From NCBI GenBank assembly GCA_038245115.1, contig JBBRSS010000001.1:25234-89233 (forward strand): a stretch of 64,000 nt of DNA. The letters run 5' to 3'. The notes beneath the pieces were generated by a model. The model did not search any database. It had not been told where the DNA came from and saw only the letters and a program-made list of their open reading frames with translations. Shown here piece by piece: positions 1,401 through 42,178 of this stretch; positions within the stretch are counted from its first letter, which is position 1; each line of letters starts with the position of its first letter. A program made the position numbers and the translations under genes. The DNA comes from Candidatus Saccharimonadia bacterium (GTDB lineage: Bacteria > Patescibacteriota > Saccharimonadia > UBA4664).

Positions 1401-3869
1401 ATGGCTAAATCAAAACGCAAATCCCGCAAATCGCGTCGACCCGTATTTTACGAGGCCATCTCTACCGTATCGATCAACCCTGTAGGGCTTCCTCACATAT
1501 CCGGGACTTGGCGAGAAAGCCTACTTGTTTTCGCTGAAATTGCCCGAATGATTACTGTTCGGCTCCGTTTAATGGCCGCCCACTCTTTTATGAATCTGCA
1601 ACACGCCGGACTAGCTACCTACGAAACCGTCGCCCAGTTCATCCACGATGTCACAATCGCCAGCCGCTACGGACTCGACGCATCGCGCACTTATCTCCCT
1701 TCAATTGTCATCGATACGGCGGCTTTTGCGACCCGTATCGCCCGACAGCTATCCAATCGTCGCGCCCGCGCGTTCTACCTCATGCTAGCCGCCTCCGCCG
1801 CTTTTGCGATGGTCGTCGTTATTGCCGTTACTGCCGCAACCACGCTCAAATCCTATGCCAACGACATTTCGAGCCCCAGCGCGTTAATGGCCAAGAAGAA
1901 AATTGGTACAACCATTCTCGACCGTAACGGCCAAGTATTATTCCAAGGCTACGGCGCAGGTTCAACCACTATTCTCGGCCTAAACGATATTTCGAATAAT
2001 CTCAAAACTGCCACGTTAGTCGCCGAGGACCCCAGCTTCTACGATCATCCTGGCTTCTCAGTTCAAGGCACCGTCCGTGCCGCAGTCACGGATATCACCC
2101 ATCAAGGCAAAGTCGAAGGCGGCTCCACGCTTACTCAACAGCTTATTAAGAACTCCTTGCTTACTTCAGACAAAAATTTTCAACGTAAATACCAAGAGAT
2201 ATTACTGGCCATCGAACTTGAACGTCATTATTCCAAAGATGAAATCCTGCAGATGTATCTCAACGAAACCTATTACGGCGAGGGTTCGTCCGGCGTGGCG
2301 GCGGCCAGCCAAACCTACTTCCACAAAACAGCCAACCAGCTCACGCTAGGTGAAGCCGCACTGTTGGCCGGTCTCCCCCTGGGGCCGAGCCGACTAGATC
2401 CAAACTATGACCTCGCTGCAGCTACCGGACGTCGAGATTACGTCTTGGGTCGAATGGCCGAACTCGGCAAAATCACCTCCCAAGAGGCCGCCACTGCCAA
2501 AGCCCAACCCCTGGCGCTCGCCTCAAATACTGCCGCCATTCCCGGCAGCCTAACCATATATCCCAAGACCATTACAATTCGCGCACCGCATTTTGTGTTC
2601 TATGTTCTCGACCAACTCCGCGCCAAATACGGCGATGACCTCATCCAAAGCGGGGGAATAACCGTCAAAACTACGCTCGATATAACGAAACAAGATCTGG
2701 CCCAGCAAACCGTCACCACCCAAATCAACAAACTATCCGACCACCACGTAACCAACGGGGGACTGGTATCAATTAATCCCGGCAATGGGGATATTCTGGC
2801 GATGGTTGGCAGCACCGACTACAATGCTCCCGATTTTGGCAATGTCAATGTAATGTTGTCGGATCTCCAGCCTGGCTCCAGCTTCAAGCCCATCGCGTAT
2901 GCCACAGCCTTCAAAAAGGGCTGGACAGGCGCCACAACGGTCGTAGACTCACCCTTCTACGCCCCCGGCGGCGACGGCACCGTCTTCGCACCCCAAAACT
3001 ATGACCTCAAATTCCACGGCACCGTTACCCTGCGCACAGCACTAGATAATTCTCTGAATATCCCTGCAGTCAAAGTGCTGCAATTTGCCGGCATCCCCGA
3101 AACCCTCCAAACCGCCCACGATCTTGGGATCACTACTCTCAACGACCCCAGCCGCTATGGCCTGTCCTTGGTACTTGGTGGCGGAGAAGTACGACCCATC
3201 GATATGGCTACAGTCTATGGCACCATCGCTAACGGTGGCGTCAAAATTGAGCCCCGGTCAATTCTCCAAGTTGCTGATCGTTACGGCAAAGATATAACCA
3301 AACCCAACGAGTCCAAGCCTCAGGCCGTGCTCGACCCCCGTATTGCCTACATGATTACCAACATCATTTCCGACGACAAATCCCGCCAACCCGAATTTCC
3401 CGCCAACGGCCCGCTTACCCTCGCCGGACGCCCCGTTGCTGCCAAAACCGGTACTACCAACGACTTCCGGGACAACTGGACCGTCGGCTACACACCTCAG
3501 CTCGTGACCGCCGTCTGGGTCGGCAACAACGATCACACGCCGATGAACAATGTTGACGGTATCACGGGCGCCGCCCCAATTTGGCACGACTACATGGAGG
3601 GGGCCTTAGCCGGCGAGCCGGTCATGAATTTTATTCCCCCAGCCGGAGTCACCGCCGTATCCGTTTGCAAGAGCGATGGCGGACTAGCCAACCCATGGGA
3701 TAGCGCTTACACCGAGATATTCATGTCCGATGCCGTACCCACCAAGCACTGCGCTGGAGGTGCTCCAAAACCGTCACCAACACCAGACTCCTCAGTAATT
3801 GTCGATCCGAACACTCCAAAACCAGGCAACCCCCATAAATTCCAGCTGCCAACTCCTATCACAAATTAG
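1401..3869 (+). CDS. class A penicillin-binding protein (transglycosylase + transpeptidase)
   Basis: GT51 motifs EDPSFYDHPG and GGSTLTQQL are present, together with transpeptidase SSFKP and KTGTT motifs. There is an N-terminal basic tail followed by a transmembrane segment. Confidence 0.85.
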   Translation: MAKSKRKSRKSRRPVFYEAISTVSINPVGLPHISGTWRESLLVFAEIARMITVRLRLMAAHSFMNLQHAGLATYETVAQFIHDVTIASRYGLDASRTYLPSIVIDTAAFATRIARQLSNRRARAFYLMLAASAAFAMVVVIAVTAATTLKSYANDISSPSALMAKKKIGTTILDRNGQVLFQGYGAGSTTILGLNDISNNLKTATLVAEDPSFYDHPGFSVQGTVRAAVTDITHQGKVEGGSTLTQQLIKNSLLTSDKNFQRKYQEILLAIELERHYSKDEILQMYLNETYYGEGSSGVAAASQTYFHKTANQLTLGEAALLAGLPLGPSRLDPNYDLAAATGRRDYVLGRMAELGKITSQEAATAKAQPLALASNTAAIPGSLTIYPKTITIRAPHFVFYVLDQLRAKYGDDLIQSGGITVKTTLDITKQDLAQQTVTTQINKLSDHHVTNGGLVSINPGNGDILAMVGSTDYNAPDFGNVNVMLSDLQPGSSFKPIAYATAFKKGWTGATTVVDSPFYAPGGDGTVFAPQNYDLKFHGTVTLRTALDNSLNIPAVKVLQFAGIPETLQTAHDLGITTLNDPSRYGLSLVLGGGEVRPIDMATVYGTIANGGVKIEPRSILQVADRYGKDITKPNESKPQAVLDPRIAYMITNIISDDKSRQPEFPANGPLTLAGRPVAAKTGTTNDFRDNWTVGYTPQLVTAVWVGNNDHTPMNNVDGITGAAPIWHDYMEGALAGEPVMNFIPPAGVTAVSVCKSDGGLANPWDSAYTEIFMSDAVPTKHCAGGAPKPSPTPDSSVIVDPNTPKPGNPHKFQLPTPITN

Positions 3870-3912: not shown

Positions 3913-5016
3913 ATGCAAGACCTTATCCGCCAGCTCCAAAGCCTCATCTCCGGGATCAACAGCGCCATCTCCAAGCTCGGCATCGAAGCCGACCGCAAAG
4001 CCGCTGCTCAGCTACGCCAGCGTACTCTGGACCCGAACTTTTGGTCCGATACCGCCGCAGCCTCGGATGTATCTCGGCGCTTAGCTGCACTCGACCGCCA
4101 TGTCGATTTTTGGAACAACCTTCTCGCCGAAGCTACCGAAGCGCTAGAGTTGGCCCGTCTCGAACAAAACGGCACTGATTCAGATCTCATCGACCAAATT
4201 CGCAGCCTGTACGAAACCGCCCAAACCGAATACGACCGCCGGCAATTTGAGCTCAAACTCTCCGGCCCGCACGACCGCTCATCGGCCATTGTCGAAATCC
4301 ACGCCGGCACCGGCGGCACCGACGCTCAGGATTGGGCTGAAATGCTCGAGCGCATGTACTTGCGCTGGGCCGAACGCGAGGGCTTTAGCGCCGAAATTGC
4401 CTCCATCTCGGCCGGCGAAGAAGCCGGCATCAAAAGCGCAACCTTCGAGGTCAACGGCCCCTACGCCTACGGCAAACTCAAGGGCGAAGCCGGCGTCCAC
4501 CGCCTCGTGCGGCTGAGCCCCTACAACTCCGACAACCTCCGCCAAACCTCCTTCGCCCTCGTGGAAGTGTTGCCTCAAATAGAGAACGAAGCCGAGCTCG
4601 AAATTGACGCCAAGGATCTGCGCATCGACGTGTACCGCTCGGGCGGCCACGGCGGCCAATCGGTCAACACTACCGACTCTGCCGTGCGCATCACTCATCT
4701 GCCCACCGGCCTGGTCGTGGCGATTCAAAACGAGCGTTCGCAACTTCAAAACAAAGAAAAGGCCATGGCCATCCTGCGCTCTCGCCTAGCCACCATGATG
4801 GAGGCTCAAGCCAAAGCCAGCCTCACAGAACTGCGCGCCAGTGACAAGTCGGCCGAATGGGGGAGCCAGATCCGCAATTACGTCCTCCACCCCTACACCA
4901 AGGTCAAAGATGTCCGTACCGGCGCCGAAACCAACCAAGCCCAAGACGTCCTCGATGGCGACCTTGAACTCTTCATGGAAGCCTACCTGCAGAGTCAGAT
5001 CGGTCCCCAAAAATAA
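3913..5016 (+). CDS. prfB: peptide chain release factor 2, single uninterrupted ORF
   Basis: The GGQ motif appears in RSGGHGGQSVNTTDS. An RF2-type SPY(F) tripeptide region is present. The protein is 367 aa and contains no internal in-frame stop. Confidence 0.85.
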   Translation: MQDLIRQLQSLISGINSAISKLGIEADRKAAAQLRQRTLDPNFWSDTAAASDVSRRLAALDRHVDFWNNLLAEATEALELARLEQNGTDSDLIDQIRSLYETAQTEYDRRQFELKLSGPHDRSSAIVEIHAGTGGTDAQDWAEMLERMYLRWAEREGFSAEIASISAGEEAGIKSATFEVNGPYAYGKLKGEAGVHRLVRLSPYNSDNLRQTSFALVEVLPQIENEAELEIDAKDLRIDVYRSGGHGGQSVNTTDSAVRITHLPTGLVVAIQNERSQLQNKEKAMAILRSRLATMMEAQAKASLTELRASDKSAEWGSQIRNYVLHPYTKVKDVRTGAETNQAQDVLDGDLELFMEAYLQSQIGPQK

Positions 5017-5043
5017 ACCCGCCGTATGATACACTAACTACAA

Positions 5044-5736
5044 ATGATTCTCTTCGACCGTGTCACCAAAGTCTACCCCAACCAGATGGTTGCGCTTAGT
5101 GGCCTCAACCTCCATATTAAGCCCAAGGAATTTGTCACCATCGTCGGCGCTAGCGGCGCAGGTAAATCAACGCTCATCAAGCTGCTCACCCGCGAAGAAA
5201 CCCATTCCTCAGGCAAAATCATCGTCGGCGGGCTCGATTACGACACCATTACCAGCCGCGACGTACCACTCGTCCGCCGCCGTATCGGCGTGGTTTTCCA
5301 GGACTTCAAACTACTTCCGGGGCGCCGCGTTGGCGAAAACGTCGCTTTTGCGCTCGAAGTTTCCGGCGCCCGCAGCCGTGAGATCAAACGTGCCGTTCCC
5401 AAAATGCTCAAGCTAGTGGGCCTCTCCACCAAGGAGAATGCTTACCCCCATGAGCTATCTGGTGGCGAACGTCAACGCGTTGCCATCGCTCGCGCCCTCA
5501 TTCGCCAGCCCAAAATCCTCATCGCCGATGAGCCCACCGGCAACCTCGACCCCAAAAACGCTTGGGAAATCATCGAATTATTGCTCAAAATTAACCGTTT
5601 CGGAACCACTGTGCTACTGACCACCCACAACAAAGAGATCGTCAACGCCCTCAAGCGCCGTGTTATCACCATCAACCGCGGCCGCATTGTCAAAGACGAA
5701 GAGCAGGGCCGCTACACTCTCGAAGGCGGCAAGTAA
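5044..5736 (+). CDS. ftsE: cell division ATP-binding protein FtsE
   Basis: ABC ATPase with Walker A GASGAGKST, LSGGERQR signature and Walker B ILIADEPTGNLD. It overlaps ftsX by 1 nt (TAATG). Confidence 0.9.
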   Translation: MILFDRVTKVYPNQMVALSGLNLHIKPKEFVTIVGASGAGKSTLIKLLTREETHSSGKIIVGGLDYDTITSRDVPLVRRRIGVVFQDFKLLPGRRVGENVAFALEVSGARSREIKRAVPKMLKLVGLSTKENAYPHELSGGERQRVAIARALIRQPKILIADEPTGNLDPKNAWEIIELLLKINRFGTTVLLTTHNKEIVNALKRRVITINRGRIVKDEEQGRYTLEGGK

Positions 5737-6650
5737 TGATTCAGTTCTGGCGAGTCCTAACGGCTGGATTACGCAACTTTATGCGCAATATGTGGCTATC
5801 AACCGCCGCCACGGCGGTGATGACAGTCACCCTTACTCTCATAATGGTGTCGTTCATCTCCAACATGGCGTTAACCGCCACCATCAAAGGTGTCACCGAC
5901 AAAATCGATGTGTCGATCTTTCTCAAAAATAACCTGACTCCAGATCAGATCAACGGCTTCAAGAAGAGCCTGACTGATTCCGGCAACGTCATAAGCCTCA
6001 CTTACGTGAGCCCCCAGCAAGCTGTACTCAACTACAAAGAGCAAAACAAGAATAATCCGCAACTCATCGCTGCCCTCGATCAAGCCGGCGATGCCTTGCC
6101 ATCCTCAGTCCAGGTCAAAGCCAAAGATCCCAAGCATCTCGACGTTATCGAGGCCGTCGTTAACCAGGCAGCTAACAAACCGCTCCTCGACCCCACCGCC
6201 CCGCCCAGCTATACTGGCAGCCGCAAGGCCACCATCGACCGCATCGTGCGCTTCGCCGGCTTCTTTAAGACTGCGGGGCTCGCCGCCAGCGCCATGTTCT
6301 TGGTAATATCCACCCTCATAATCTTCAACACCATCCGCATGGCCATCTTTACCCGCCGCGACGAAATCGAGATCATGAAGCTCGTGGGCGCCACCAAATG
6401 GTTCATCCGCGGCCCATTTATCTTTGAGGCCACACTTTATGGCATCATCGCCGCCATAATTGCAACGATCTTATCTTGTCTCCTGCTGTTTGGCGGCGCC
6501 ACCAAAGTTGCCAGTTACATTGATTTCTCTACCACCGTCAGTTTCTTCCAGTCCTACATCCTCTTAATTATCGTGGCCGAATTTGTTCTCGGCGTTATCA
6601 TCGGCGCGGTCTCATCGCTGCTCGCCATGAGCCGCTATCTCAAGCTGTAA
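5736..6650 (+). CDS. ftsX: cell division permease FtsX
   Basis: It has four TM segments with a large extracellular loop, is translationally coupled to ftsE, and has an FtsX-type C-terminal TM bundle. Confidence 0.85.
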   Translation: MIQFWRVLTAGLRNFMRNMWLSTAATAVMTVTLTLIMVSFISNMALTATIKGVTDKIDVSIFLKNNLTPDQINGFKKSLTDSGNVISLTYVSPQQAVLNYKEQNKNNPQLIAALDQAGDALPSSVQVKAKDPKHLDVIEAVVNQAANKPLLDPTAPPSYTGSRKATIDRIVRFAGFFKTAGLAASAMFLVISTLIIFNTIRMAIFTRRDEIEIMKLVGATKWFIRGPFIFEATLYGIIAAIIATILSCLLLFGGATKVASYIDFSTTVSFFQSYILLIIVAEFVLGVIIGAVSSLLAMSRYLKL

Positions 6651-6834
6651 ATGTTTTTTCATCCAAACTTCAGACTAACTTAAGAAATATTATTAGTTAA
6701 TATATCCACAAATGCGTCAATAGGCATAACCAGTTTGACAATAATAGCACTTACGACTTACGATATGTCTACCTTGGAGGGGCAAGACTATTCGTAATAA
6801 GTTCAACAATCTCAGCCAGACCATCACCCGCACT

Positions 6835-7899
6835 TTGCTGGCGGTAGCGGTCGGTTTTTCAATTAGCGGCGCCGCGTACGCGGACCAGTTCGACGCTCAA
6901 ATTGCGGCCTTAAAAGCCCAGGCTAGTGCCCAACAAGCCACGGCGGCCGGATTCGCCGCCCAGGCCAACGACTACCAAACTCGTGTCAATCAGCTCAACG
7001 CGCAAATTAGTGCTTTGCAATCACAAATTAACTTGAACCAAGCACAATACGACCAAGTTACGGCACAAATTGCCGCTAATGAGGCCAATCTTGCAGAAAA
7101 AAAGGCCACCCTTGGGGCCAACCTCAAGAGCATGTATTTGGATTCTTCCGTGACCCCGCTCGAGATGATCGCCTCGAGCAACAATCTCAGCGACTACTTT
7201 AATCAGCAGCAATACCAGGACAGCATCAAAGATAAGATTCAAGCTGCCATGGCCGATATCCTAGCCACCCAAAAACAACTTGCTATCCAGAAAACCCAAG
7301 TTGAAGCCCTCCTGAATTTGCAAAACGGACAAAAACAACAATTAGCGAGCGCGCGTGCCGAGGCTAACCAGCTTCTCGCTACAGCGTCTCAAAGTGCAGC
7401 CGCGGCAAATGCACAGGTTGCAGCCAGTAACTCTCAGATCTCCAGCGTCAAGGCTCAGCAACAAGCCGCTCTTATCGCTCGATTCGGCAACGGCATTACC
7501 AGTGGCGGCGGCGCAGCTTGCGGCGGCGGCTACCCAGGCTATCTCTGCAATGCCCCCCAAGACTCGCTAGCCGACCCCTGGGGTATGTACAACCGCGAAT
7601 GCGTCAGCTACACCGCGTTTAAAGTAGCTGCCTCTGGCCGACATATGCCCTACTGGGGTGGACACGGCAACGCCAACCAGTGGCCCGATAGTGCCCGTGC
7701 TGACGGTATTGCCGTCGACGGCAACCCTCAGGTCGGCGATGTTGCCATATCTTATGCTGGACCGGTTGGTCATGCCATGTACGTCGAGGGTGTAGCCAAT
7801 GGCCGGATCCATGTTAGCCAATACAATTTTGGAGCCCCTGGAACTTATAGCGAAATGACCATTTCGGCCAGCGGTCTATACTTCATTCACTTCCGTTAA
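6835..7899 (+). CDS. secreted coiled-coil + C-terminal CHAP-domain peptidoglycan hydrolase (PcsB-like, FtsEX-associated)
   Basis: A Gln/Ala-rich coiled-coil region is followed by a CHAP domain (a conserved Cys in ...NRECVSYTAFK..., His in VGHAMYVEG). It lies immediately downstream of ftsEX. The signal peptide appears to begin upstream of the listed TTG; the true start is uncertain (see finding). Confidence 0.75.
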   Translation: MLAVAVGFSISGAAYADQFDAQIAALKAQASAQQATAAGFAAQANDYQTRVNQLNAQISALQSQINLNQAQYDQVTAQIAANEANLAEKKATLGANLKSMYLDSSVTPLEMIASSNNLSDYFNQQQYQDSIKDKIQAAMADILATQKQLAIQKTQVEALLNLQNGQKQQLASARAEANQLLATASQSAAAANAQVAASNSQISSVKAQQQAALIARFGNGITSGGGAACGGGYPGYLCNAPQDSLADPWGMYNRECVSYTAFKVAASGRHMPYWGGHGNANQWPDSARADGIAVDGNPQVGDVAISYAGPVGHAMYVEGVANGRIHVSQYNFGAPGTYSEMTISASGLYFIHFR

Positions 7900-7900
7900 A

Positions 7901-9109
7901 ATGCCTCAATTATCCATAAAAGAAAGGTCTTTAAGTTTGAAAAAAATTGAGCTCAACCCGCTGGTACTCAGTGCCTCTGTCATAGTCTTATCCTTGGGCT
8001 CGTTCTACGCCGGGAATGCCTACACCAGCGCACTACCAAACCCCTTCGTAAAACCGGTAAATAAGGCCGACTTTTCGAGCTTAAACTCCGTCTATGCCCT
8101 AATGCAGCGCAACTTCGACGGCCAGATTGACGACCAAAAGGCCCTGGATGGCGCCAAGGCCGGCCTCGTCGCCGCCGGCGGCGACCCCTACACCGTATTT
8201 ATGGATGCCAAATCAGCCAAAAAGCTGTCTGATGATCTCACCGGTAAACTCTCCGGTATCGGTGCCGAAATCGGCATTAAGAATAATATCCTCACCGTCA
8301 TTGCGCCCCTTGATGGCACCCCAGCTGCTGCTGCCGGGCTTAAATCTGGCGACCTCATAGCTAAAATCAACAACGAAGACACCACCAATATGAGCGTAGA
8401 TATGGCCGTGTCCAAGATCCGCGGTGACGCCGGTACCAAGGTTACCCTCAAGCTCGTTCGCAGCGGCACGCCCGACCCGTTCGATGTCACCATTACCCGT
8501 GCGGATATAACAGTACCTAGCGTCAAGTCCAGCCTCAAGAACGGGAATGTAGCTTACATCAACATTACACGCTTTGGTCCGGACACCGCCGACCTCATCA
8601 GCCAAGCCGCCACCACCCTCAAGGCCCAAGGTGCCACCAAAGTCATTCTCGACCTACGTAACGACCCGGGCGGTTATTTGGACGCCGGAGTAGCTGTATC
8701 CAGCCAATTCCTCGACAGCGGCAAGCTAGTGGTCGAAGAGCGCACCAATGGCAAAAGCACCAACAAGCTCACCGCCACCGGCGGGGGACTGCTCAAAGGG
8801 ATGCCCACGATCGTGCTGATCAACGGAGGATCGGCCAGCGCCTCGGAAATTGTCGCCGGAGCCTTGCACGACAACAAAGTCGCTCAATTGCTCGGAGAAA
8901 AAAGCTTCGGTAAAGGCAGCGTTCAAGAGATCAAAGATCTACCTGATGGCGCCCAGCTCAAAGTTACCGTAGCGCACTGGTACACTCCGGGCGGTGTCAA
9001 CATCAACAAAGAGGGGATTAAGCCCGATGTTGAAGTCAAGCTGACCACCGAAGACTTTAACGCCAGCCGCGACCCCCAGCTCGATAAAGCCCTGGATATG
9101 CTCAAGTAG
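7901..9109 (+). CDS. ctpA: carboxyl-terminal processing protease (S41 family) with PDZ domain
   Basis: A PDZ region (GLKSGDLIAKINNE) and the S41 catalytic region (GGSASASEIVAGAL...GEKSFGKGSVQ) are present. There is an N-terminal TM anchor. An alternative TTG start near 7940 (MKKIELNPLVL) is possible. Confidence 0.8.
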   Translation: MPQLSIKERSLSLKKIELNPLVLSASVIVLSLGSFYAGNAYTSALPNPFVKPVNKADFSSLNSVYALMQRNFDGQIDDQKALDGAKAGLVAAGGDPYTVFMDAKSAKKLSDDLTGKLSGIGAEIGIKNNILTVIAPLDGTPAAAAGLKSGDLIAKINNEDTTNMSVDMAVSKIRGDAGTKVTLKLVRSGTPDPFDVTITRADITVPSVKSSLKNGNVAYINITRFGPDTADLISQAATTLKAQGATKVILDLRNDPGGYLDAGVAVSSQFLDSGKLVVEERTNGKSTNKLTATGGGLLKGMPTIVLINGGSASASEIVAGALHDNKVAQLLGEKSFGKGSVQEIKDLPDGAQLKVTVAHWYTPGGVNINKEGIKPDVEVKLTTEDFNASRDPQLDKALDMLK

Positions 9110-23927: not shown

Positions 23928-25304
23928 ATGGCAACTTCGCCCTCAGCTTCGACTTCACCATCAATGGAAACCCTAGTATCGCTCGCTAAGCGGCGCGGTT
24001 TTGTGTTCCAATCTTCCGAAATCTACGGCGGCCTCGCCGGTTTCTGGGATTACGGCCCTTACGGAACCGAAATGGCCAAGAACATCAGAGACGCCTGGTG
24101 GAAGCATTTTGTGTACCAGCACCCAAACATCGTGGGCCTCGACAGCACGATTATCCAAAATCCCAAGCTCTGGAAAGCCAGCGGTCACGTCGATACTTTC
24201 GTGGACCCAATGGTTGACTGTAAATTCTGCCAGCATCGTTTCCGCGCCGATCATCTCACCGACTTCGAAACCAAAGATCTCACCGAATATGACGCCGCCC
24301 TAATCAAGGTTAAATGTCCCCACTGTGGCAAAACTGGCGGCTTCACCGAGGCCAAACAATTCAATATGATGTTCAAAACCTATGTTGGCCCTGTGACCAC
24401 CGAGGACAACGTCGCATATCTGCGGCCCGAAACTGCCGGCGGCATCTTCGCCCAGTTCCAGAATGTCCTCGAAACATCCCGCCAACGTATTCCCTTTGGT
24501 ATCGCCCAGATCGGCAAAGCCTTCCGCAACGAGATTACTCCCGGCGATTTCATTTTCCGCGTGCGAGAACTCGAACAAATGGAGCTCGAGTATTTCGTTA
24601 GCCCGGATGACGGCCACACCCAACACCAAACCTGGATCAAAATCTGCCACAATTGGCTGCAAAGTATCGGCCTACCCAAGGACAAGCTCAAACTCTACGA
24701 GCACGGTCCCGACGAACGCGCCCACTACGCCGCCGCCAGTATCGATATCCAATACGACTACCCCATGGGCTTCAAGGAGCTCTATGGCGTGGCTTACCGC
24801 ACCGACTACGACCTAACCGTCCAAAGCAAGGGTAGCGGCAAAGATCTCAGCTACTTTGACGAACCCACCAAATCACGCTTCATGCCCCATGTTATTGAGC
24901 CCTCGGTTGGCGTCGGCCGACTGCTGCTAGCCCTCATGCACGCCGCCTATCACGAAGAAGACGTCGCCGGAGAAAAGCGGGTAGTCCTCAAGTTCCGTCC
25001 AGAAATTGCCCCTGTTAAGGTCGCCATTTTGCCGCTCTCGAAAAACGAAAAACTAGCCCCGATTGCCCGCTCAATATTCGATCAACTGGCCGGGTCTTAC
25101 CGCGTAGAATACGACGAGACTCAATCCATCGGCCGTCGCTACCGCCGCCAAGATGAAATCGGCACCCCGCTATGCGTCACCATCGACTTCGACACCCTCG
25201 AGGACAAAGCCGTTACCATTCGACATCGCGACACCATGAAGCAGACCCGTGTCGCCATCACCGACCTATCAACCGAAATCGATAAGCTTCTTAAGGCATT
25301 CTAA
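23928..25304 (+). CDS. glyQS: glycine--tRNA ligase, dimeric (alpha2) archaeal/eukaryal type
   Basis: SLAKRRGFVFQSSEIYGGLAGFWDYGPYG is present, and the class II motifs are present. Confidence 0.9.
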   Translation: MATSPSASTSPSMETLVSLAKRRGFVFQSSEIYGGLAGFWDYGPYGTEMAKNIRDAWWKHFVYQHPNIVGLDSTIIQNPKLWKASGHVDTFVDPMVDCKFCQHRFRADHLTDFETKDLTEYDAALIKVKCPHCGKTGGFTEAKQFNMMFKTYVGPVTTEDNVAYLRPETAGGIFAQFQNVLETSRQRIPFGIAQIGKAFRNEITPGDFIFRVRELEQMELEYFVSPDDGHTQHQTWIKICHNWLQSIGLPKDKLKLYEHGPDERAHYAAASIDIQYDYPMGFKELYGVAYRTDYDLTVQSKGSGKDLSYFDEPTKSRFMPHVIEPSVGVGRLLLALMHAAYHEEDVAGEKRVVLKFRPEIAPVKVAILPLSKNEKLAPIARSIFDQLAGSYRVEYDETQSIGRRYRRQDEIGTPLCVTIDFDTLEDKAVTIRHRDTMKQTRVAITDLSTEIDKLLKAF

Positions 25305-27249: not shown

Positions 27250-27278
27250 TTGACACTCCAGATGAGATGTTTTATAAT
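27250..27278 (+). promoter_or_regulatory. consensus sigma70-type promoter (TTGACA-17-TATAAT), leaderless configuration
   Basis: A perfect TTGACA -35 hexamer, a 17-nt spacer and a perfect TATAAT -10 hexamer are present. The -10 ends 8 nt before ATG 27287 and there is no SD. Confidence 0.6.
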
Positions 27279-27286
27279 TTTTAACA

Positions 27287-28321
27287 ATGATTAACGCTAT
27301 GACAGCCAAAACCCCCACAACCTACAATTACAAATCCGCCGTCGAACAAATCCTTAAGGAATTGCGACGCGATCGTGATCGCCAAATTATCGCTCGGCGG
27401 TTTGGCTTTGGCATGCCGCGCCGCCAAACTCTCGAAAAGATCGGTAACGATTTCGAAATTACGCGCGAACGTGTCCGCCAAATCGAAAAAGCTGCCATCG
27501 CCAAAATGCGCGCCAGCAACTCCGCCGACATCGTAACCGGCGGAGAAACTTTGCGAGCTATTGCCGCTGATCAAGGGGGGATTCTGCCAATTGCCGATGT
27601 CGCAGAAATGCTAAGTGCTCCCGAGGCCGACATTCCCTATCTTGTATTTCTAGCCCGACTTGCCGGCAGCGTTGAGTTAATTGAAGACGACGATGATGTG
27701 CGCCAAGCCATTGGCCTCGCCGGTATTTTTTCTCGCCCCCAAGTCAACCTACTGCTCGCCGAAATCATTAAATCCGTCAAAGACTACTCCAAGCCCATCA
27801 CTCTCGCCAAGCTCAAGGTCAAGCTGCCGTCCGAACTGGATGTTATTACCCTTGAGCAACTTATGCGTATTTCAAAAAAATTAGCCTACTTTGACGGCAA
27901 ATGGGGTCTTATCACCTGGCCCGAGGTCAACCCCAAGAGCATCCGCGACAAAACTTATCTGGTACTATCACGCCACGGGCGCCCGCTGCACTTTTCCGAA
28001 ATCGCCAAGCACGTTCGAAGCCTCGGCGCTACCAAACGCAACGTCACCATTCAAGCCGTCCACAATGAGCTCATCAAAGACCAGCGTTTCATCCTTATCG
28101 GTCGCGGCATCTACGCTCTCGCCGAATGGGGTTATACCCCCGGTACAGTTGCCGAAATTATCGCCAGTGTCTTGCGCGAAGAGCAGCCGTTGCACAAGGA
28201 TGAAATCGTTCGTCGCGTGCTTATGAAGCGCCAAGTTAAAACAACCACCATCATTTTGAATCTCCAAGAAAAAGACCAATTCCAGCGTACCGCCAAAGCC
28301 ACTTACAAGCTTAAGGATTAA
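27287..28321 (+). CDS. DNA-binding protein: N-terminal sigma-70 region 4-like HTH followed by two HARE-HTH-like winged-helix repeats
   Basis: A region 4.2-like segment (IARRFGFGMPRRQTLEKIGNDFEITRERVRQIEKAAIAKMR) is followed by two repeats ending FDGKWGLITW and QRFILIGRGIYALAEWGY, the pattern of HARE-HTH/RNAP delta N-domain. Confidence 0.55.
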   Translation: MINAMTAKTPTTYNYKSAVEQILKELRRDRDRQIIARRFGFGMPRRQTLEKIGNDFEITRERVRQIEKAAIAKMRASNSADIVTGGETLRAIAADQGGILPIADVAEMLSAPEADIPYLVFLARLAGSVELIEDDDDVRQAIGLAGIFSRPQVNLLLAEIIKSVKDYSKPITLAKLKVKLPSELDVITLEQLMRISKKLAYFDGKWGLITWPEVNPKSIRDKTYLVLSRHGRPLHFSEIAKHVRSLGATKRNVTIQAVHNELIKDQRFILIGRGIYALAEWGYTPGTVAEIIASVLREEQPLHKDEIVRRVLMKRQVKTTTIILNLQEKDQFQRTAKATYKLKD

Positions 28322-28396: not shown

Positions 28397-31393
28397 TTGA
28401 CACCGATCACGGCCATCTTTCAGATTATTGGCCTGATCTTATTTAAGTTTTACGGCTGGGTCGTTGTGGTAGCCGTACTCGGTTATTTGTTTTATCAAAA
28501 CCAGCGCAAGGTCAAATGGATCGGATCCACCGAGAACATCCTCCTGCTCATCGAAGTCCCCAAAGACAACGAAAAGAAGGAGTTGTCCGCCGAACAAATG
28601 TTTGCCTCGCTCCACGGCATCCTGCGTCCCAAATCCGAACTCCAGCGCGACGGGTCGATCCAGGAACACATCTCGTTCGAAATTGTCTCACGTCTTAATT
28701 CAATCCAGTTTTATGTCTGGACCCCCAAACATCTCAAGGACTTCGTCGAGAGCCAAGTCTACGCCCAATACCCGACCGTCCAGATCAAAGAAGGGCCGTC
28801 TGACTACTCCGCCATCGACATCGCTGGCCGAACCATCTACGGAACCGAACTCGGGCTCACCAAAAATTCGATGATGCCCATCAAAACCTTCGCCTCATTC
28901 GAGGTCGACCCCCTCGCCGGCATCACGGGCGTTTTAGCGAAACTCGAACAAACCGGCGAAGAAGTCTGGATTCAAATTCTAGCCCGGCCCATCGATGATT
29001 CCTGGCAAAACTTGGGCAAATCCTATATCGACGGCATCAAAGGGGGGAGTAAGGGACCTCTGGACATTTTCAGCCTCGATGGGCTACTCCAATTGCCGAT
29101 TTATATTATCACCACCTTCTTCACAGCCCTATTTACCCCGCCCAGCGCAACCGCCGGCAAAACCCCGGATAAAAAAGAGATCAGTACTGGCGACCAAACC
29201 GTCATAAAGGCCGTTGAAGAGAAAATCGTCAAGCTCGGCTATGAAGTCAAAATACGCATCGCCTATTTGGGGCCCGATGAAGCCTCGGGTAGACAACGGC
29301 TCCAAGCTATCGTGGGCGGGTTCAAACAATTCAATACAACCAACCTTAATGGCTTCACCAACGCCAAAATGTACAATTCAGCTGAGTTTATCGGCGACTA
29401 CCAGGCCCGGTTGTTCTTCGACTCCGGCTACATCCTCAATATCGAAGAGCTGGCGTCGCTATACCATCTGCCCCATAAGTCCGTTGAAACCCCCAACATG
29501 GTCTGGACGACGGCCAAAACCAGCGAGCCGCCCTCTAACATCCCCGTCGAAGGAATAGGGGAGCCTGGCGAACTCAGCCTCTTCGGCCTCACCAACTTCC
29601 GCGGCCGCCACCTCAAGTTTGGTATCAACCGCCGCGATCGAGGGCGCCACATGTACATCATTGGCCAGACCGGCGCCGGCAAATCATTCCTCTTGCAGCT
29701 GCTCACTTTGTCCGACATCTATCATGACCAAGGCTTCGCCATTGTCGACCCCCACGGCGACTTCGCCACCGACATCATGAAATACATCCCCGAGCACCGC
29801 CTCAACGATGTCGTCTATCTCAACCCGGCCGACCGTGACTTCCCGATGGCCTTTAACCCCATGGAAATCACCGACCCGGCCATGAAAGACCACATCAGCT
29901 CCGAACTCGTGGGTGTACTCAAGCGCATGTTCGAATCCTGGGGGCCGCGTTTGGAATACATTCTGCGCTATACCATTTTGGCCCTCCTCGACCACCCCGA
30001 TTCGACCATGCTCGACATTACCCGCATGCTCAACGAAAAAGACTTCCGCAAGCAGGTCATCAATAGCATTCAGGACCCGGTTGTTAAAAGCTTCTGGATT
30101 ACAGAATTCGCCTCCTGGAACGAAAAATTTGCTTCCGAGGCTGTCGCGCCTGTGCTCAACAAGGTCGGAGCATTCGTGGCCAACCCGCTGGTGCGTAACA
30201 TCATCGGGCAAAAAAAGAGCGCCTTCAATATTCGCGAAATCATGGACGAAGGCAAAATCCTCCTCGTAAACCTCAGCCGCGGTCAGGTCGGTGAAGATAA
30301 CGCCGCCATCCTAGGCGCCCTAATGGTTACCAAGATTCAGCTGGCCGCTATGAGCCGAGCCGACATGCCGCTCGAACAACGCCGCCCCTTCTATCTCTAC
30401 GTCGACGAATTCCAGAACTTCGCCACCGACTCGTTCGCGGTTATTCTCTCAGAAGCCCGCAAGTACGGCCTCAACCTCACCGTGGCCAACCAGTACGTCT
30501 CCCAAATGCCCGAGGTCGTGCGCGACGCCGTCTTTGGTAACGTTGGTACTATGGTAAGTTTCCGCATTGGACCGGGCGATTCTACCGTGCTCGGCCGCTA
30601 CTTTGAGCCCGTCTTTGAAGCCATTGACCTCACCAAACTCCACAACCAAAATATCTTCATCTCCATGATTATCGACGGCGAAAAAGCCGCCCCATTCTCG
30701 GCCTCAACCCTACGTATGCCCGATCCGGAAAACGATCAAACCGCCCGCATTATTTCGATATCCCGCGAACGCTTTGCCTCTCACCGAGAAGAAGTCGAGG
30801 TTGATATTCGTTCTCGTACAGCCGGTGGCAATGATCAAGGCGCTCGCGCCGTCAATACTTCCGCCGGTGATCAAAAACCGAACAAAGAACTACTTAACGT
30901 CCTCAAGAACCCCGACCGTCCCCGCAACGAGCCCAGGCGCGACGACCGTCGAGCAGGGGAGTCGGGGGGCGGGGGACGCGGCCCTGGGCGCGACGATAAC
31001 CGCCGCCCACACGAATCGCAGGGCGCCAGCGCACCATACAGCGGGGGAGGCGACCGCCGCGAGCGTTCAAACTCGAGCAGGGGAGCGAGCGCACCGTATC
31101 GGCCCAGTGCGGGAGCCAGTGCCCCCTACAAGCCTCGTCCCGAGAACCAGCAGCCGGCACCAGTCCAGCAGGCCCCTGCCAGCACCCCATATCGTCCCGA
31201 GGAGCACCGTGACGCCGCTCCAACCCCAACTCACATGCAAACCCCTCACCACCAAACGCAAACGCAACCGCCCGCCACACCAGCCACTCGCGCCCCGGAG
31301 CCAACTGCACCCACCCCAGCCGCCTCTACCAGCCACCCGTCCACCCAAGCATCCCATGCTGTTGAACCAGGCGAAGCTATCAGCCTGCGCTAA
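28397..31393 (+). CDS. membrane-anchored FtsK/HerA-superfamily P-loop ATPase, VirB4/VirD4 (type IV secretion)-like, with long disordered C-terminal tail
   Basis: There is an N-terminal TM segment. Walker A is IIGQTGAGKS, a DPHGD (DPKGE-like) motif is present, and Walker B is LYVDEFQNF. The C-terminal ~200 aa are low-complexity Pro/Ala/Thr/Arg-rich with three GASAPY repeats. The start is uncertain (see finding on ATT). Confidence 0.55.
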   Translation: MTPITAIFQIIGLILFKFYGWVVVVAVLGYLFYQNQRKVKWIGSTENILLLIEVPKDNEKKELSAEQMFASLHGILRPKSELQRDGSIQEHISFEIVSRLNSIQFYVWTPKHLKDFVESQVYAQYPTVQIKEGPSDYSAIDIAGRTIYGTELGLTKNSMMPIKTFASFEVDPLAGITGVLAKLEQTGEEVWIQILARPIDDSWQNLGKSYIDGIKGGSKGPLDIFSLDGLLQLPIYIITTFFTALFTPPSATAGKTPDKKEISTGDQTVIKAVEEKIVKLGYEVKIRIAYLGPDEASGRQRLQAIVGGFKQFNTTNLNGFTNAKMYNSAEFIGDYQARLFFDSGYILNIEELASLYHLPHKSVETPNMVWTTAKTSEPPSNIPVEGIGEPGELSLFGLTNFRGRHLKFGINRRDRGRHMYIIGQTGAGKSFLLQLLTLSDIYHDQGFAIVDPHGDFATDIMKYIPEHRLNDVVYLNPADRDFPMAFNPMEITDPAMKDHISSELVGVLKRMFESWGPRLEYILRYTILALLDHPDSTMLDITRMLNEKDFRKQVINSIQDPVVKSFWITEFASWNEKFASEAVAPVLNKVGAFVANPLVRNIIGQKKSAFNIREIMDEGKILLVNLSRGQVGEDNAAILGALMVTKIQLAAMSRADMPLEQRRPFYLYVDEFQNFATDSFAVILSEARKYGLNLTVANQYVSQMPEVVRDAVFGNVGTMVSFRIGPGDSTVLGRYFEPVFEAIDLTKLHNQNIFISMIIDGEKAAPFSASTLRMPDPENDQTARIISISRERFASHREEVEVDIRSRTAGGNDQGARAVNTSAGDQKPNKELLNVLKNPDRPRNEPRRDDRRAGESGGGGRGPGRDDNRRPHESQGASAPYSGGGDRRERSNSSRGASAPYRPSAGASAPYKPRPENQQPAPVQQAPASTPYRPEEHRDAAPTPTHMQTPHHQTQTQPPATPATRAPEPTAPTPAASTSHPSTQASHAVEPGEAISLR
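30780..31390 (+). repeat. low-complexity repeat-containing coding tail (GASAPY x3, Arg/Gly-rich, Pro/Thr/Gln-rich)
   Basis: Short direct repeats are visible in the translation of the ATPase 3' end, and there is purine/pyrimidine compositional skew. Confidence 0.6.
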
Positions 31394-32064
31394 GCTGCGC
31401 TGTTATCGTCGAGGATTAACGATTGATAGTTAGCAGGATCTGGATACCTGCTATAATGAGCCAAAATGTTCCTGAATTCGACGAGACCCGTAACTCTTAG
31501 TCGTGGGATAAGTCTCATCTTACCCATATGCATTGCTGCATATTCAATATCATCTTCAGATAGCTCCAAGTTCGCGCATACGAAATAAAGGGGGACTGAT
31601 TTTGGAAAATCCAGGTATTTTGGAATTTTGATATTTACGTTGCTTTGTAGGGTACGAATGGTATTGGGGTAAAAGATATCAATACCGATATTACCTTCCG
31701 GCGTGAACACCATAAAATCAAGCCTACTGCCTTGTCGCCCGTAGCGCTTCTCCGTATGAACATACAGCTCCCCAAACTGATGGATGAGTTCAATCTCAAG
31801 CTCTTGTTCGCTTTTTAGCCCCCGGATTGAGCTCTTGGTTGCACTAGCCGACCTATTTTCGCCACTGCCGAAATCAATATCCTCGTAGCCAAGGTCCTGA
31901 CGAAGCCTTTTTAGCCCACCAAATCCCCGTTGAATCTGTCGCGATGAAGGCAAAAAATTTGTATTGTCAATTTCGTGGGCAGTAGGAAGTCTCCCCTCTT
32001 CTAAAATAAATTTATCAAAGCCAGCCTTAATGTTCGCTAACGTCCAAATTGTTTCGAAAGTCAT
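31390..32064 (-). CDS. orphan hypothetical protein in AT-rich island (possible nuclease-like fold)
   Basis: The 224-aa ORF lies in a region clearly more AT-rich than its flanks. It has no confident motif; RLDFMVF...GIDIF...NIKIPK is weakly reminiscent of PD-(D/E)xK. It is convergent with the ATPase gene and overlaps it by 4 nt. Confidence 0.4.
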   Translation of the reverse strand: MTFETIWTLANIKAGFDKFILEEGRLPTAHEIDNTNFLPSSRQIQRGFGGLKRLRQDLGYEDIDFGSGENRSASATKSSIRGLKSEQELEIELIHQFGELYVHTEKRYGRQGSRLDFMVFTPEGNIGIDIFYPNTIRTLQSNVNIKIPKYLDFPKSVPLYFVCANLELSEDDIEYAAMHMGKMRLIPRLRVTGLVEFRNILAHYSRYPDPANYQSLILDDNSAA

Positions 32065-40930: not shown

Positions 40931-42178
40931 TTAGTCTTGGTCGGTCGGCTGACCCTTACCACGCAGGGCATCCAGTACAGACTTGCGCGAGCGCAGGTAA
41001 GCACGTGAGGCGTATCCAATAGCGGTCAATCCGGCTACGCCGCCGAATACGGTCTCGGGACCGGTAGCGGGCAGGCTAGCACTCAATACTTGACCGGTAG
41101 GCGTAGGCGTAGGTACGGGAGTCGGCGTTGAAGTCGGCCCGGTCACTATCACTTTGGCACTGCAAGCTTCGCTAACGGCAGTGATGCCGGCAGTCGTCTT
41201 AACTTGTGCGTGAACATTCCACGTGCCTTCACCAAGCGTATACTCGGTGAAATTCTGACTAGCGTTAATGTCCTTAACGTCTGGAGTCGTACTACCTCCC
41301 CCGCTCAGCTCACGGCTGACGGAGAAGCGATAACCCGAAATTTCAACATTCTCAACCTGGCTCTTGACCGTAAATCTAAACACATCAGGGTGGTTTACCT
41401 TATCGGTTTGGCTTGGGGTAAGCAGTACGCAAGCGAACGAATGTTCGGGTGCGGGCGTAGGCTTAGGGGTTGGAGTCGGAGTAGGCGTAGGCTTAGGGGT
41501 TGGAGTCGGTGCGGGTGTAGGCGTAGGTGTAGGTGTAGGTGTAGGCGTGGGTGTAGGCGTGGGCTTAGGGGTCGGAACTGGCGTCGGTGTCGGCGTCGGC
41601 TTAGGCGTAGGCTTAGGAGTAGGCTTAGGGGTCGGGGCTGGGGTCGGAGTTGGGTGAATTGTCGAATTTGCCCGTACCGGGTTACCGCACGACTTAATGA
41701 TCGCGTAGTGGAAAGTCCCACCCTCTATATCCACGTAGGCCGGAATAGAATTTGAGGCAAACGACACTGATGTCGCCCGCTCCCAAACGGTTCCGCTCTT
41801 AGTTGATCCGGCCATATAACTGCGACCGACGCTCTTTGCGCCAGTAGCTACGGTTTTACCGTTAACCTCAATGTGACCATCTTTAAAGACAGTCCCATCT
41901 ACGGTGGAGCTAGACAGAAAGTTAGCCTGGGTAATCCCGCGGCCTTCATTATAATAAATGTGCTTCAGGCTGGCAGACGAGTTCTTGGTATCGCCGTTCG
42001 TAACCTTGTTGAGCCATTCGGTTTTCGAATAAGCCCCGTTAAACATGACGGCATTAGCGTCCCTGTCGCGCGGCTGAGAGACGGCTGCGGCAATACCCGG
42101 AGCCACCAAACCCGCTACGATCAGCGTTAAAGCGAACAAGCGCGAAGCTTTTGTTCCTAATTTAGTAAAGATAGACAT
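40931..42178 (-). CDS. LPXTG-anchored surface protein with long Pro-Thr/Lys linker
   Basis: The N-terminal signal peptide is followed by a globular domain and then a (PT/PK)n linker. The C-terminal LPATG is followed by a hydrophobic stretch and an RSRK tail, which together form a sortase sorting signal. Confidence 0.8.
41440..41660. repeat. imperfect tandem repeats (6-nt and ~30-nt periods) encoding the PT-rich linker
   Basis: ggcgtaggcttaggggttggagtcgg is duplicated, and there are runs of ggtgta/ggcgtc. Confidence 0.7.

Follow-up and report, generated by a model that had tools for sequence, protein, structure and literature searches.

Which machine does a type IV secretion system (T4SS)-family ATPase serve when its gene lies among housekeeping genes of a bacterial chromosome? 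The question is raised by a gene of a Candidatus Saccharimonadia bacterium that occupies positions 28397..31393 in the 64,000-nucleotide stretch of contig JBBRSS010000001.1 analyzed here (positions 25,234 to 89,233, assembly GCA_038245115.1; hereafter, the window); all coordinates below are window coordinates on the + strand unless marked (-). The gene begins with TTG, the earliest start codon past an in-frame stop, and encodes a 998-amino-acid (aa) protein that an earlier reading of the sequence (the original prediction) described as a membrane-anchored VirB4/VirD4-like ATPase with a disordered repeat tail. The open reading frame (ORF) and every motif quoted in that prediction are present, and the observation of a membrane-anchored T4SS-family ATPase at this position is confirmed, with the interpretation given there supported in part. 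We describe the whole gene as encoding a DUF8128-type ATPase resembling type IV coupling proteins (T4CPs). By sequence, its ATPase half is a T4CP of the VirD4/TrwB type and not an ATPase of the VirB4 type.

Coupling-protein class of the ATPase half

The T4CP-type ATPase occupies residues ~410-795 (29624..30781), where Pfam, Protein Data Bank (PDB), hhalign and Foldseek comparisons place a nucleotide-binding domain and an all-alpha domain. The three motifs of the original prediction, IIGQTGAGKS (residues 421-430), DPHGD (451-455) and YVDEFQNF (668-675), are located, in an alignment of 40 sequences with 33-88% identity, at columns that are invariant or almost so. In the Walker A motif GQTGAGKS (residues 423-430; 29663..29686), G423, G428 and K429 are invariant; the DPHGD box (29747..29761) aligns with DPNGD of TrwB; and the Walker B motif FYLYVDEF (residues 665-672; 30389..30412) has an invariant D670 and a nearly invariant E671. 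Downstream of Walker B, the alignment contains a conserved SEARKY motif and the glutamines Q699 and Q703, both invariant. The protein thus has the nucleotide-binding domain of the FtsK/HerA type, with both Walker motifs, that is expected of a T4CP.

Profile searches assign this domain to the coupling proteins. Pfam TrwB_AAD_bind matches residues 413-707 (1.1e-11, 44.7 bits vs. a cut-off of 20.5), and both T4SS-DNA_transf (21.3 bits vs. 20.1) and DUF87 are likewise above threshold. The best NCBIfam matches are T4CP families, namely conju_CD1115 (1.4e-10) and TraD, with VirB4, HerA and FtsK-type models at noise level and all equivalog cut-offs missed by far. In a PDB sequence search the only relatives are TrwB (5e-6) and DotL. 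We then aligned profiles by hhalign with reference proteins of R388 (TrwB, TrwK) and pGO1 (TrsK, TrsE, TrsD). The alignment with the T4CP TrwB (97.3%, E 2e-11, 265 columns) covers the nucleotide-binding and all-alpha domains, and that with the T4CP TrsK (92.7%, E 4e-7, 306 columns) spans the entire ATPase. In contrast, the VirB4 proteins TrwK (12%, E 0.0023) and TrsE (91.5%, E 9e-7) are each aligned over ~78 columns around the P-loop.

The AlphaFold2 (AF2) model of residues 1-800 has a mean predicted local distance difference test score (pLDDT) of 87 and a predicted TM-score (pTM) of 0.70. Its secondary structure contains a block of helices across residues 494-603 (29876..30205), inserted between the two Walker motifs. 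This block is covered by the hhalign alignments with TrwB (columns 412-710) and TrsK (columns 418-740), and in the model it corresponds to the all-alpha domain that is a hallmark of T4CPs. Superposition of this model on TrwB by Foldseek gives a TM-score (TMt) of 0.65-0.68. Because the TrwB and TrsK alignments span the ATPase, the VirB4 references align at the P-loop only, and the model contains the all-alpha block, the VirB4/TraC/VirD4 class within the FtsK-HerA superfamily suggested by the original prediction can be narrowed: the T4SS-family assignment stands, whereas its VirB4/TraC part gives way to the VirD4/TrwB type. Several other classes were considered and rejected. For a VirB4 assembly ATPase, AAA_10 scores 23.8 bits, below its cut-off of 27.5, P-loop_TraG has E 0.13, and CagE_TrbE_VirB has no Pfam match in the protein. 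An FtsK/SpoIIIE translocase is contradicted by a FtsK_SpoIIIE match of E 0.064 confined to residues 417-442, by a gamma domain that is not detected and by the single transmembrane helix. For a HerA helicase, the NCBIfam HerA model gives E 0.085, the N-terminal domain consists of alpha/beta subdomains and is not a barrel, and the gene has no NurA-like neighbor. The best-scoring families are T4CPs, and not the non-secretion HerA/FtsK helicases that the original prediction had named as the outcome that would speak against it.

Membrane anchor, DUF8128 domain and C-terminal tail

The N-terminal transmembrane anchor (residues ~4-33; 28406..28495) proposed in the original prediction is borne out by hydropathy, with a Kyte-Doolittle maximum of 2.44 at residues 10-28, and by an AF2 helix at residues 3-44. 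A similar segment is located in the first 60 aa of 103 of the 118 close homologs and 61 of the 103 distant representatives. The helix is immediately followed by Lys/Arg, which suggests an N-out, C-in topology and would thus place the DUF8128 domain in the cytoplasm. The N-terminal membrane anchor by which T4CPs are recognized is therefore present, as one helix vs. the usual pair.

Between the anchor and the ATPase lies the DUF8128 domain (PF26449; residues ~45-400; 28529..29596), delimited by the annotation of close homologs and the AF2 model. The precomputed PF26449 assignment is found in all of the best 120 homologs, including P0001, which is 96% identical to the window protein, and the DUF8128-only gene of a locus with split genes (L086) also aligns here; the N-terminal ~400 residues are thus assigned to PF26449 through these homologs. 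The N-terminal 405 aa also match phrog_5156, a family of unknown function (2e-26). The AF2 model of residues 1-405 (pLDDT 84, pTM 0.79) contains a long transmembrane helix followed by two alpha/beta subdomains, so that the large pre-ATPase domain noticed previously is a real and confidently folded unit (pLDDT 84-87 in the two models). The two subdomains are linked by a hydrophobic or amphipathic helix, residues 227-246 (29075..29134), with disordered linkers on either side; it is supported by weak hydropathy (residues 224-247) and by AF2, where the model confidence is low. This helix is less hydrophobic and more amphipathic in distant homologs, and an equivalent hydrophobic segment is found in part of a mobile-element clade of DUF8128 proteins described below.

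The fold of this N-terminal half raises a second explanation for the entire protein, namely that it is a divergent second assembly ATPase of the VirB4 type, with a membrane-anchored N-domain and a C-terminal ATPase, and not a coupling protein. In TrwK/VirB4 of R388, an N-domain likewise precedes a C-terminal ATPase of the FtsK/HerA type. In a Foldseek search of the PDB, the whole-protein model is aligned end to end with full-length VirB4 chains as its top matches (E 7e-14, ~880 columns, TM-score 0.31), and TrwK/VirB4 chains make up all of the best 12 matches of residues 1-405 (E 2.6e-5 to 9.5e-4), followed by unrelated ferredoxin-like folds. In addition, the occurrence of DUF8128 and ATPase as two separate genes in some lineages recalls the TrsD/TrsE split of the MPF-FATA systems (mating-pair formation class FATA). 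However, the TM-scores of these matches are low (TMq 0.33-0.40 for the N-domain), profile similarity to TrwK and TrsE is limited to the P-loop, the Pfam and NCBIfam VirB4 models are at or below noise, and the window ATPase carries the T4CP-type all-alpha domain. Moreover, DUF8128 could not be linked at profile level to the VirB4 N-domain, whether with TrwK alone, with a purpose-built 16-sequence alignment of VirB4 N-terminal domains or with TrsD of pGO1, and the relative encoded on mobile elements adjoins a separate, bona fide VirB4. We thus consider an assembly ATPase of the VirB4 type very unlikely, and treat the likeness of DUF8128 to the VirB4 N-domain, which comes from Foldseek comparison of a predicted model, as a lead and not as a result. 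A Pfam scan of 27 DUF8128 sequences at E up to 10 returned scattered noise only, a PDB sequence search with the DUF8128 profile returned no match, and none of the papers found in the literature names DUF8128 or PF26449.

The C-terminal tail (residues ~800-998; 30794..31390) is, by its composition, of low complexity, probably disordered and net-basic, with abundant Pro, Ala, Arg, Ser and Gly residues and a net charge of +5. It contains the DQKPNKELLNVLKNP motif N-proximally and an EPGEAISLR motif at the terminus. Three imperfect 18-nt copies encoding GASAPY (31021..31128, copies at 31021, 31081 and 31111) are present vs. a single unit in P0001, and Tandem Repeats Finder detects in the tail region only a 6-nt x 3.2 array (31253-31271). 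Comparison of tail lengths, as the original prediction had proposed, shows variation among the close homologs from 67 to 279 aa by one delimitation and from 92 to 304 aa by another, with a net-positive tail in 94 of 119 and the QKPN motif at the tail start in 65 of 120. A PGExxSLR-like terminal motif is kept in only ~32 of the 120 close homologs, and was rejected as a family-wide signal. The tail is thus fast-evolving. The low-complexity C-tail of the original prediction holds, whereas its description as a repeat tail was overstated, the repeats being marginal; the tails are mostly net-basic.

The resulting architecture can be compared with known coupling proteins. TrwB (R388), VirD4 and TraD share with the window protein an N-terminal anchor, a RecA-like domain with an inserted all-alpha domain, a flexible C-terminal tail, the DPxGD box, Walker A/B and the downstream RK/Q motifs. 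The window protein differs from them in having one transmembrane helix instead of two and an extra DUF8128 domain of ~350 aa between anchor and ATPase; its gene lies on the chromosome, is inherited vertically and has no relaxase or T4SS next to it. The tails of classical T4CPs are acidic, whereas that of the window protein is mostly basic. The monoderm MPF-FATA coupling proteins of the TrsK (pGO1)/CD1115 family include the best NCBIfam match (conju_CD1115), and the Patescibacteria T4SS is itself FATA-related. However, TrsK is encoded within the tra/trs cluster and, at 546 aa, is about 450 aa shorter than the window protein; since the hhalign match starts at TrsK residue 31, there is no space in TrsK for a DUF8128 domain of ~350 aa.

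Distribution, conserved partner and possible role

The family comprises >7,000 proteins by word-indexed search, with top matches named Saccharimonadales or Patescibacteria, and 23,859 clusters at 50% identity by exhaustive search (E up to 1e-3); >600 loci were found among GTDB species genomes. Full-length matches with 37-60% identity extend across >15 candidate phyla and are labeled Saccharibacteria, Nomura-, Peregrini-, Peri-, Dojka-, Uhr-, Falkow-, Buchanan-, Magasanik-, Davies-, Morani-, Gracili-, Doudna-, Abawaca- and Parcubacteria. The DUF8128-type T4CP homolog is Patescibacteria-wide and vertically conserved, with core status across the phylum. A cluster look-up for ten representative proteins returned one "hypothetical protein" and the rest without names, and no taxa. 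Falkowbacteria, Doudnabacteria and one metagenome lineage encode DUF8128 (422-487 aa) and the ATPase (551-647 aa) in two separate genes, which explains the many ATPase-only matches at 50-55% identity in the exhaustive cluster search; some of the split-form ATPases carry a C-terminal zinc-finger module in place of the tail.

A different genomic setting was found on large mobile elements. A scan of IMG/VR identified a 158-kb contig (L090) that encodes a 799-aa protein with 25% identity over residues 65-775, whose N-terminal half is a bona fide DUF8128 (hhalign 99.5%, E 2e-22). Together, its relatives constitute a phrog_5156-like clade of DUF8128+TrwB_AAD_bind proteins, ~800 aa long and encoded on contigs of 110-178 kb, with one member labeled Psychrobacillus. 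All four loci with enough upstream sequence, on contigs of 110-160 kb, have the gene order ParM-like ... TrbL/VirB6-like, PrgI/VirB3-like, VirB4-like (~600 aa), DUF8128-T4CP, Replic_Relax, and in a fifth locus, truncated by the end of its contig, Replic_Relax is retained. The proteins of this clade have the DUF8128 and T4CP architecture in common with the window protein; however, identity is only ~25%, the N-terminal transmembrane helix is absent and their length of ~800-810 aa makes a long tail unlikely. Their genes lie between VirB6-like/PrgI/VirB4 and Replic_Relax, whereas the window gene lies away from any T4SS. Co-encoding with a T4SS (VirB4, VirB6) and/or a relaxase, by which T4CPs are also recognized, is thus absent at the window locus and found only in this distant clade. 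Judged from gene order and domain profiles, at least one other lineage thus has DUF8128+T4CP as the coupling protein belonging to a compact T4SS of the monoderm type, and the position of the clade within a T4SS module indicates a T4SS coupling-protein origin of this architecture. In four of these metagenomic or "viral" contigs (L090, L095, L096 and L097), the module is surrounded by many small ORFs and by metabolic genes, including NAMPT, a nicotinamide mononucleotide transporter and PGM; such elements may represent phage-plasmids or megaplasmids of a conjugative type, and may come from Bacillota.

In the window, the ATPase gene is preceded by a helix-turn-helix (HTH) gene (27287..28321) encoding sigma-70 region 4 (residues ~6-82) and a HARE-HTH domain similar to that of the RNA polymerase delta subunit (residues ~218-281), without sigma region 2. 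This product looks like an uncharacterized, phylum-specific transcription-associated factor. The pairing with an upstream HTH protein claimed in the original prediction is real and conserved across Patescibacteria: the HTH gene is located directly upstream of the T4CP-like gene in 46 of the 78 loci (of 83) where the ORF scan recovered the latter, distant classes included, and the split DUF8128/ATPase gene pair is still downstream of it. A 1340-aa ORF at 4804-8826 of locus L009, which resembles an HTH-T4CP fusion, was rejected as an artifact of a masked N-run in the genome record. Just upstream of the HTH gene in the window we identified a perfect sigma-70 consensus promoter, TTGACA-17-TATAAT (27250..27278; 12/12 matches), and the 75-nt gap between the HTH and ATPase genes contains no convincing terminator; the two genes are therefore likely co-transcribed as one operon, as far as these sequence signals tell. 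The promoter ends 8 nt ahead of the ATG of the HTH gene (27287), so that the mRNA would have no leader or almost none, provided that translation does not in fact begin at the ATG of codon 5.

The stand-alone chromosomal location noted in the original prediction holds as well. Of the 55 window ORFs with a length of 80 aa or more, the scan covered about 48, among them all larger ones, and none of these matches a T4SS, relaxase or integrase family; the neighbors are housekeeping genes, and neither T4SS genes nor a relaxase were found in the syntenic loci inspected. A survey of 3,035 Patescibacteria genomes reported 5,713 VirD4-type T4CP homologs in 2,918 genomes, with 148 of the 5,713 near virB4, as well as VirB4 in 2,417 genomes and a Patescibacteria T4SS nested in MPF-FATA (Quinonero-Coronel et al., 2025; PMC12102498). 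The phylum-wide, stand-alone distribution of those homologs far from virB4 is like that of the window family. The T4CP homolog of Southlakia epibionticum was described there as far from virB4 and non-essential, and the authors stated that exaptation "cannot be ruled out" (PMC12102498). In S. epibionticum, the one species amenable to genetics, the essential T4SS cluster SEML1_0006-0019, with VirB4 (SEML1_0008), a TrsD-like protein (SEML1_0009) and PrgI (SEML1_0010), is without recognizable coupling or relaxase proteins (Wang et al., 2023; PMC10633639). We identified SEML1_0293 of S. epibionticum ML1 as the probable ortholog of the window ATPase gene, on the basis of synteny, length and domain coordinates only. 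It encodes 921 aa with PF10412 at 402-719 and is flagged "core" and "Patescibacteria-enriched" (PMC10633639 Table S1); the adjoining SEML1_0294, probable ortholog of the window HTH gene, encodes Sigma70_r4 and HARE-HTH, has TopA nearby, and is essential and "Patescibacteria-enriched" (PMC10633639). SEML1_0293 thus resembles the window gene in length class, PF10412 coordinates, upstream Sigma70_r4/HARE-HTH gene and TopA nearby, whereas its downstream neighbors are a GNAT gene and CRISPR-Cas9 and those of the window gene form the dcw (division and cell wall) cluster. By transposon sequencing, SEML1_0293 is non-essential in all three calls (NE/NE/NE; normalized reads 5817, 2940 and 1372; PMC10633639), and it is dispensable for epibiotic growth of S. 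epibionticum while T4SS genes are essential (PMC10633639 Table S1). This lends no support to the role in host or epibiont interaction that the original prediction considered possible.

We favor, at about an even chance of being right, a relocated T4CP that serves the chromosomal FATA-like T4SS in trans. By analogy with TrwB, VirD4 and TrsK, the DUF8128-T4CP would form a membrane-bound hexamer and use ATP to receive and pass on substrates, which may be protein or nucleic acid, with the tail and the all-alpha domain as putative docking surfaces. Its partner would be the monoderm-type (MPF-FATA-like) T4SS that is encoded elsewhere in Patescibacteria genomes, and the DUF8128 domain would serve for docking to its VirB3/VirB4/VirB6 platform. 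VirD4 of classical systems is required for substrate transfer and dispensable for T-pilus formation. The essential T4SS function in Saccharibacteria, possibly related to a pilus, would likewise not require the DUF8128-T4CP, which would explain a non-essential ortholog beside an essential T4SS. This explanation is favored because it reconciles these two observations, because the sole informative genomic association of the architecture is with a complete T4SS module, and because the Patescibacteria T4SS cluster is without a T4CP of its own.

Several observations weigh against a T4CP acting in trans. The scanned 64 kb hold no T4SS match, and the conserved partner is an HTH protein of a transcription type. 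SEML1_0293, a probable ortholog in the sense defined above, is non-essential, although its normalized reads fall ~4-fold from T0 to T2 (5817 to 1372; PMC10633639), whereas the T4SS is essential; and T4CP homologs occur in more genomes than VirB4 (PMC12102498). Furthermore, S. epibionticum encodes a second T4CP-like paralog, SEML1_0142, of 1019 aa with a "TraM recognition domain", which is essential and preceded by small, partly essential hypothetical genes (SEML1_0140-0142; PMC10633639 Table S1). SEML1_0142 could be the true T4SS partner; it may be a functional T4SS coupling protein or a part of another machine.

The same observations lend themselves to a T4SS-independent explanation, the main alternative although rather unlikely in our view, in which the protein is an exapted membrane ATPase that, after leaving the T4SS cluster, moves nucleic acid or another substrate at or across the membrane together with the sigma-r4/HARE-HTH protein, for instance in the uptake, export or scavenging of DNA or nucleotides. 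It would account for the operon-like pairing with the HTH gene in distant classes, split-gene forms included, for the location away from virB4 in nearly all genomes and occurrence in more genomes than VirB4, with exaptation kept open by the authors of the survey (PMC12102498), and for a non-essential ATPase ortholog while the T4SS is essential. The prevailing net-positive tails (94 of 119) and the zinc-finger modules are compatible with nucleic-acid binding, and nucleotides must reach Patescibacteria from some source besides ComEC (PMC11665869). However, the protein has one transmembrane helix and no pore-forming domain, gene adjacency alone is no proof of a functional link, and, since only the HTH partner of the two is essential, their functions are at least partly separate; the only informative association of the architecture with a complete T4SS module also speaks against it. 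A bolder version, which we regard as improbable, would combine a domesticated, phylum-wide DUF8128-T4CP that works off the T4SS and forms with the essential HTH protein a Patescibacteria-specific module for handling or translocating nucleic acid, possibly a ComEC-independent route for DNA or nucleotides into or out of these auxotrophic epibionts, with true homology between DUF8128 and the VirB4 N-domain; the family would then represent an evolutionary intermediate between VirB4 and VirD4.

Compared with published data, the annotation of the family and the stand-alone Patescibacteria T4CPs with their odd location (reported in 2025) are not new, and the gain is therefore incremental. What appears to be new is the definition of the DUF8128-type architecture, along with its split forms, its conserved linkage to the HTH gene and its relatives embedded in T4SS modules. 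These points bear on the role of the T4SS in Patescibacteria and on the uptake of resources from hosts by auxotrophic epibionts (PMC11665869). For a relocated T4CP acting in trans, as for its alternatives, the stand-alone homolog is now defined as a distinct conserved architecture of transmembrane anchor, DUF8128, T4CP ATPase and basic tail, and the split into two genes, the tie to an essential HTH gene, the relatives in complete monoderm T4SS modules and the non-essential ortholog, in a transformable organism where a deletion strain is feasible, provide handles for testing directly if the T4SSs of Patescibacteria translocate substrates, and if so which.

Surrounding genes of the locus

Upstream of the ATPase gene lie the HTH gene, GalU-like, CofD-like, aminoacyl-tRNA synthetase, RecO and NUDIX genes and a two-component pair; downstream, in convergent orientation, lies the dcw cluster (ftsQ-murG-ftsW-mraY-pbp-mraW-mraZ), and farther away are SecA, aminoacyl-tRNA synthetase genes, MreBCD and genes for penicillin-binding proteins (PBPs). 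This neighborhood might suggest an FtsK-like translocase for chromosome segregation or cell division, since the protein belongs to the FtsK-HerA superfamily and its gene is convergent with the dcw cluster both here and at about 20 Saccharibacteria loci. However, the dcw neighborhood is for the most part specific to Saccharibacteria, being detected only at loci labeled Saccharibacteria, Saccharimonas/Saccharimonadales, Nomurabacteria or unclassified Patescibacteria; the convergent orientation also speaks against a link, and in another lineage SecDF/SecA are the neighbors of the T4CP-like gene. Together with the FtsK_SpoIIIE match restricted to the P-loop, the gamma domain that is not detected and a canonical, essential FtsK (SEML1_0096) in S. 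epibionticum (PMC10633639), these data make such a translocase most improbable.

The PADLOC models mad8 (4.6e-18) and HerA (1e-9) match the ATPase, MzaA matches the sigma-r4 part of the HTH protein, and the HTH-ATPase pair of S. epibionticum adjoins a CRISPR-Cas9 locus, which could be taken as signs of an anti-phage defense component or of a decaying mobile-element remnant. These PADLOC matches, however, cover generic ATPase or sigma-r4 modules only, and the family is a phylum-wide core one ("core" and "Patescibacteria-enriched" flags; PMC10633639 Table S1), with 37-60% identity across classes and intact catalytic motifs. With housekeeping surroundings and no integrase match in the window scan in addition, we give hardly any credence to either of these origins.

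All-vs-all clustering of the neighbor ORFs was confounded by antisense ORFs and yielded nothing beyond the targeted searches. Upstream of mraZ, a 415-aa ORF at 40931-42178 (-) has no Pfam match and a marginal match to NCBIfam GltJ (E 0.0018). A 224-aa ORF at 31390-32064 (-) is convergent with the ATPase gene and overlaps its stop codon by 4 nt. It has no match in Pfam, NCBIfam, PADLOC or PHROG and only marginal, chance-like PDB sequence matches (best E 0.0037, a designed repeat protein). In two syntenic loci (L001 and L002) the ORF is absent, and only a gap of 350-400 bp precedes ftsQ; thus, it may be a lineage-specific insertion. These two loci, from related Saccharimonadales, have the gene order TopA, PBP1A, HTH, T4CP. 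In the window, PBP1A (1401-3869) is separated from the HTH gene (27287-28321) by ~23 kb of housekeeping genes, including a release factor gene, FtsEX, CTP synthase, PhoH, XseA, a large PAS/GAF histidine kinase, RecO and an aminoacyl-tRNA synthetase gene, which points to a local rearrangement.

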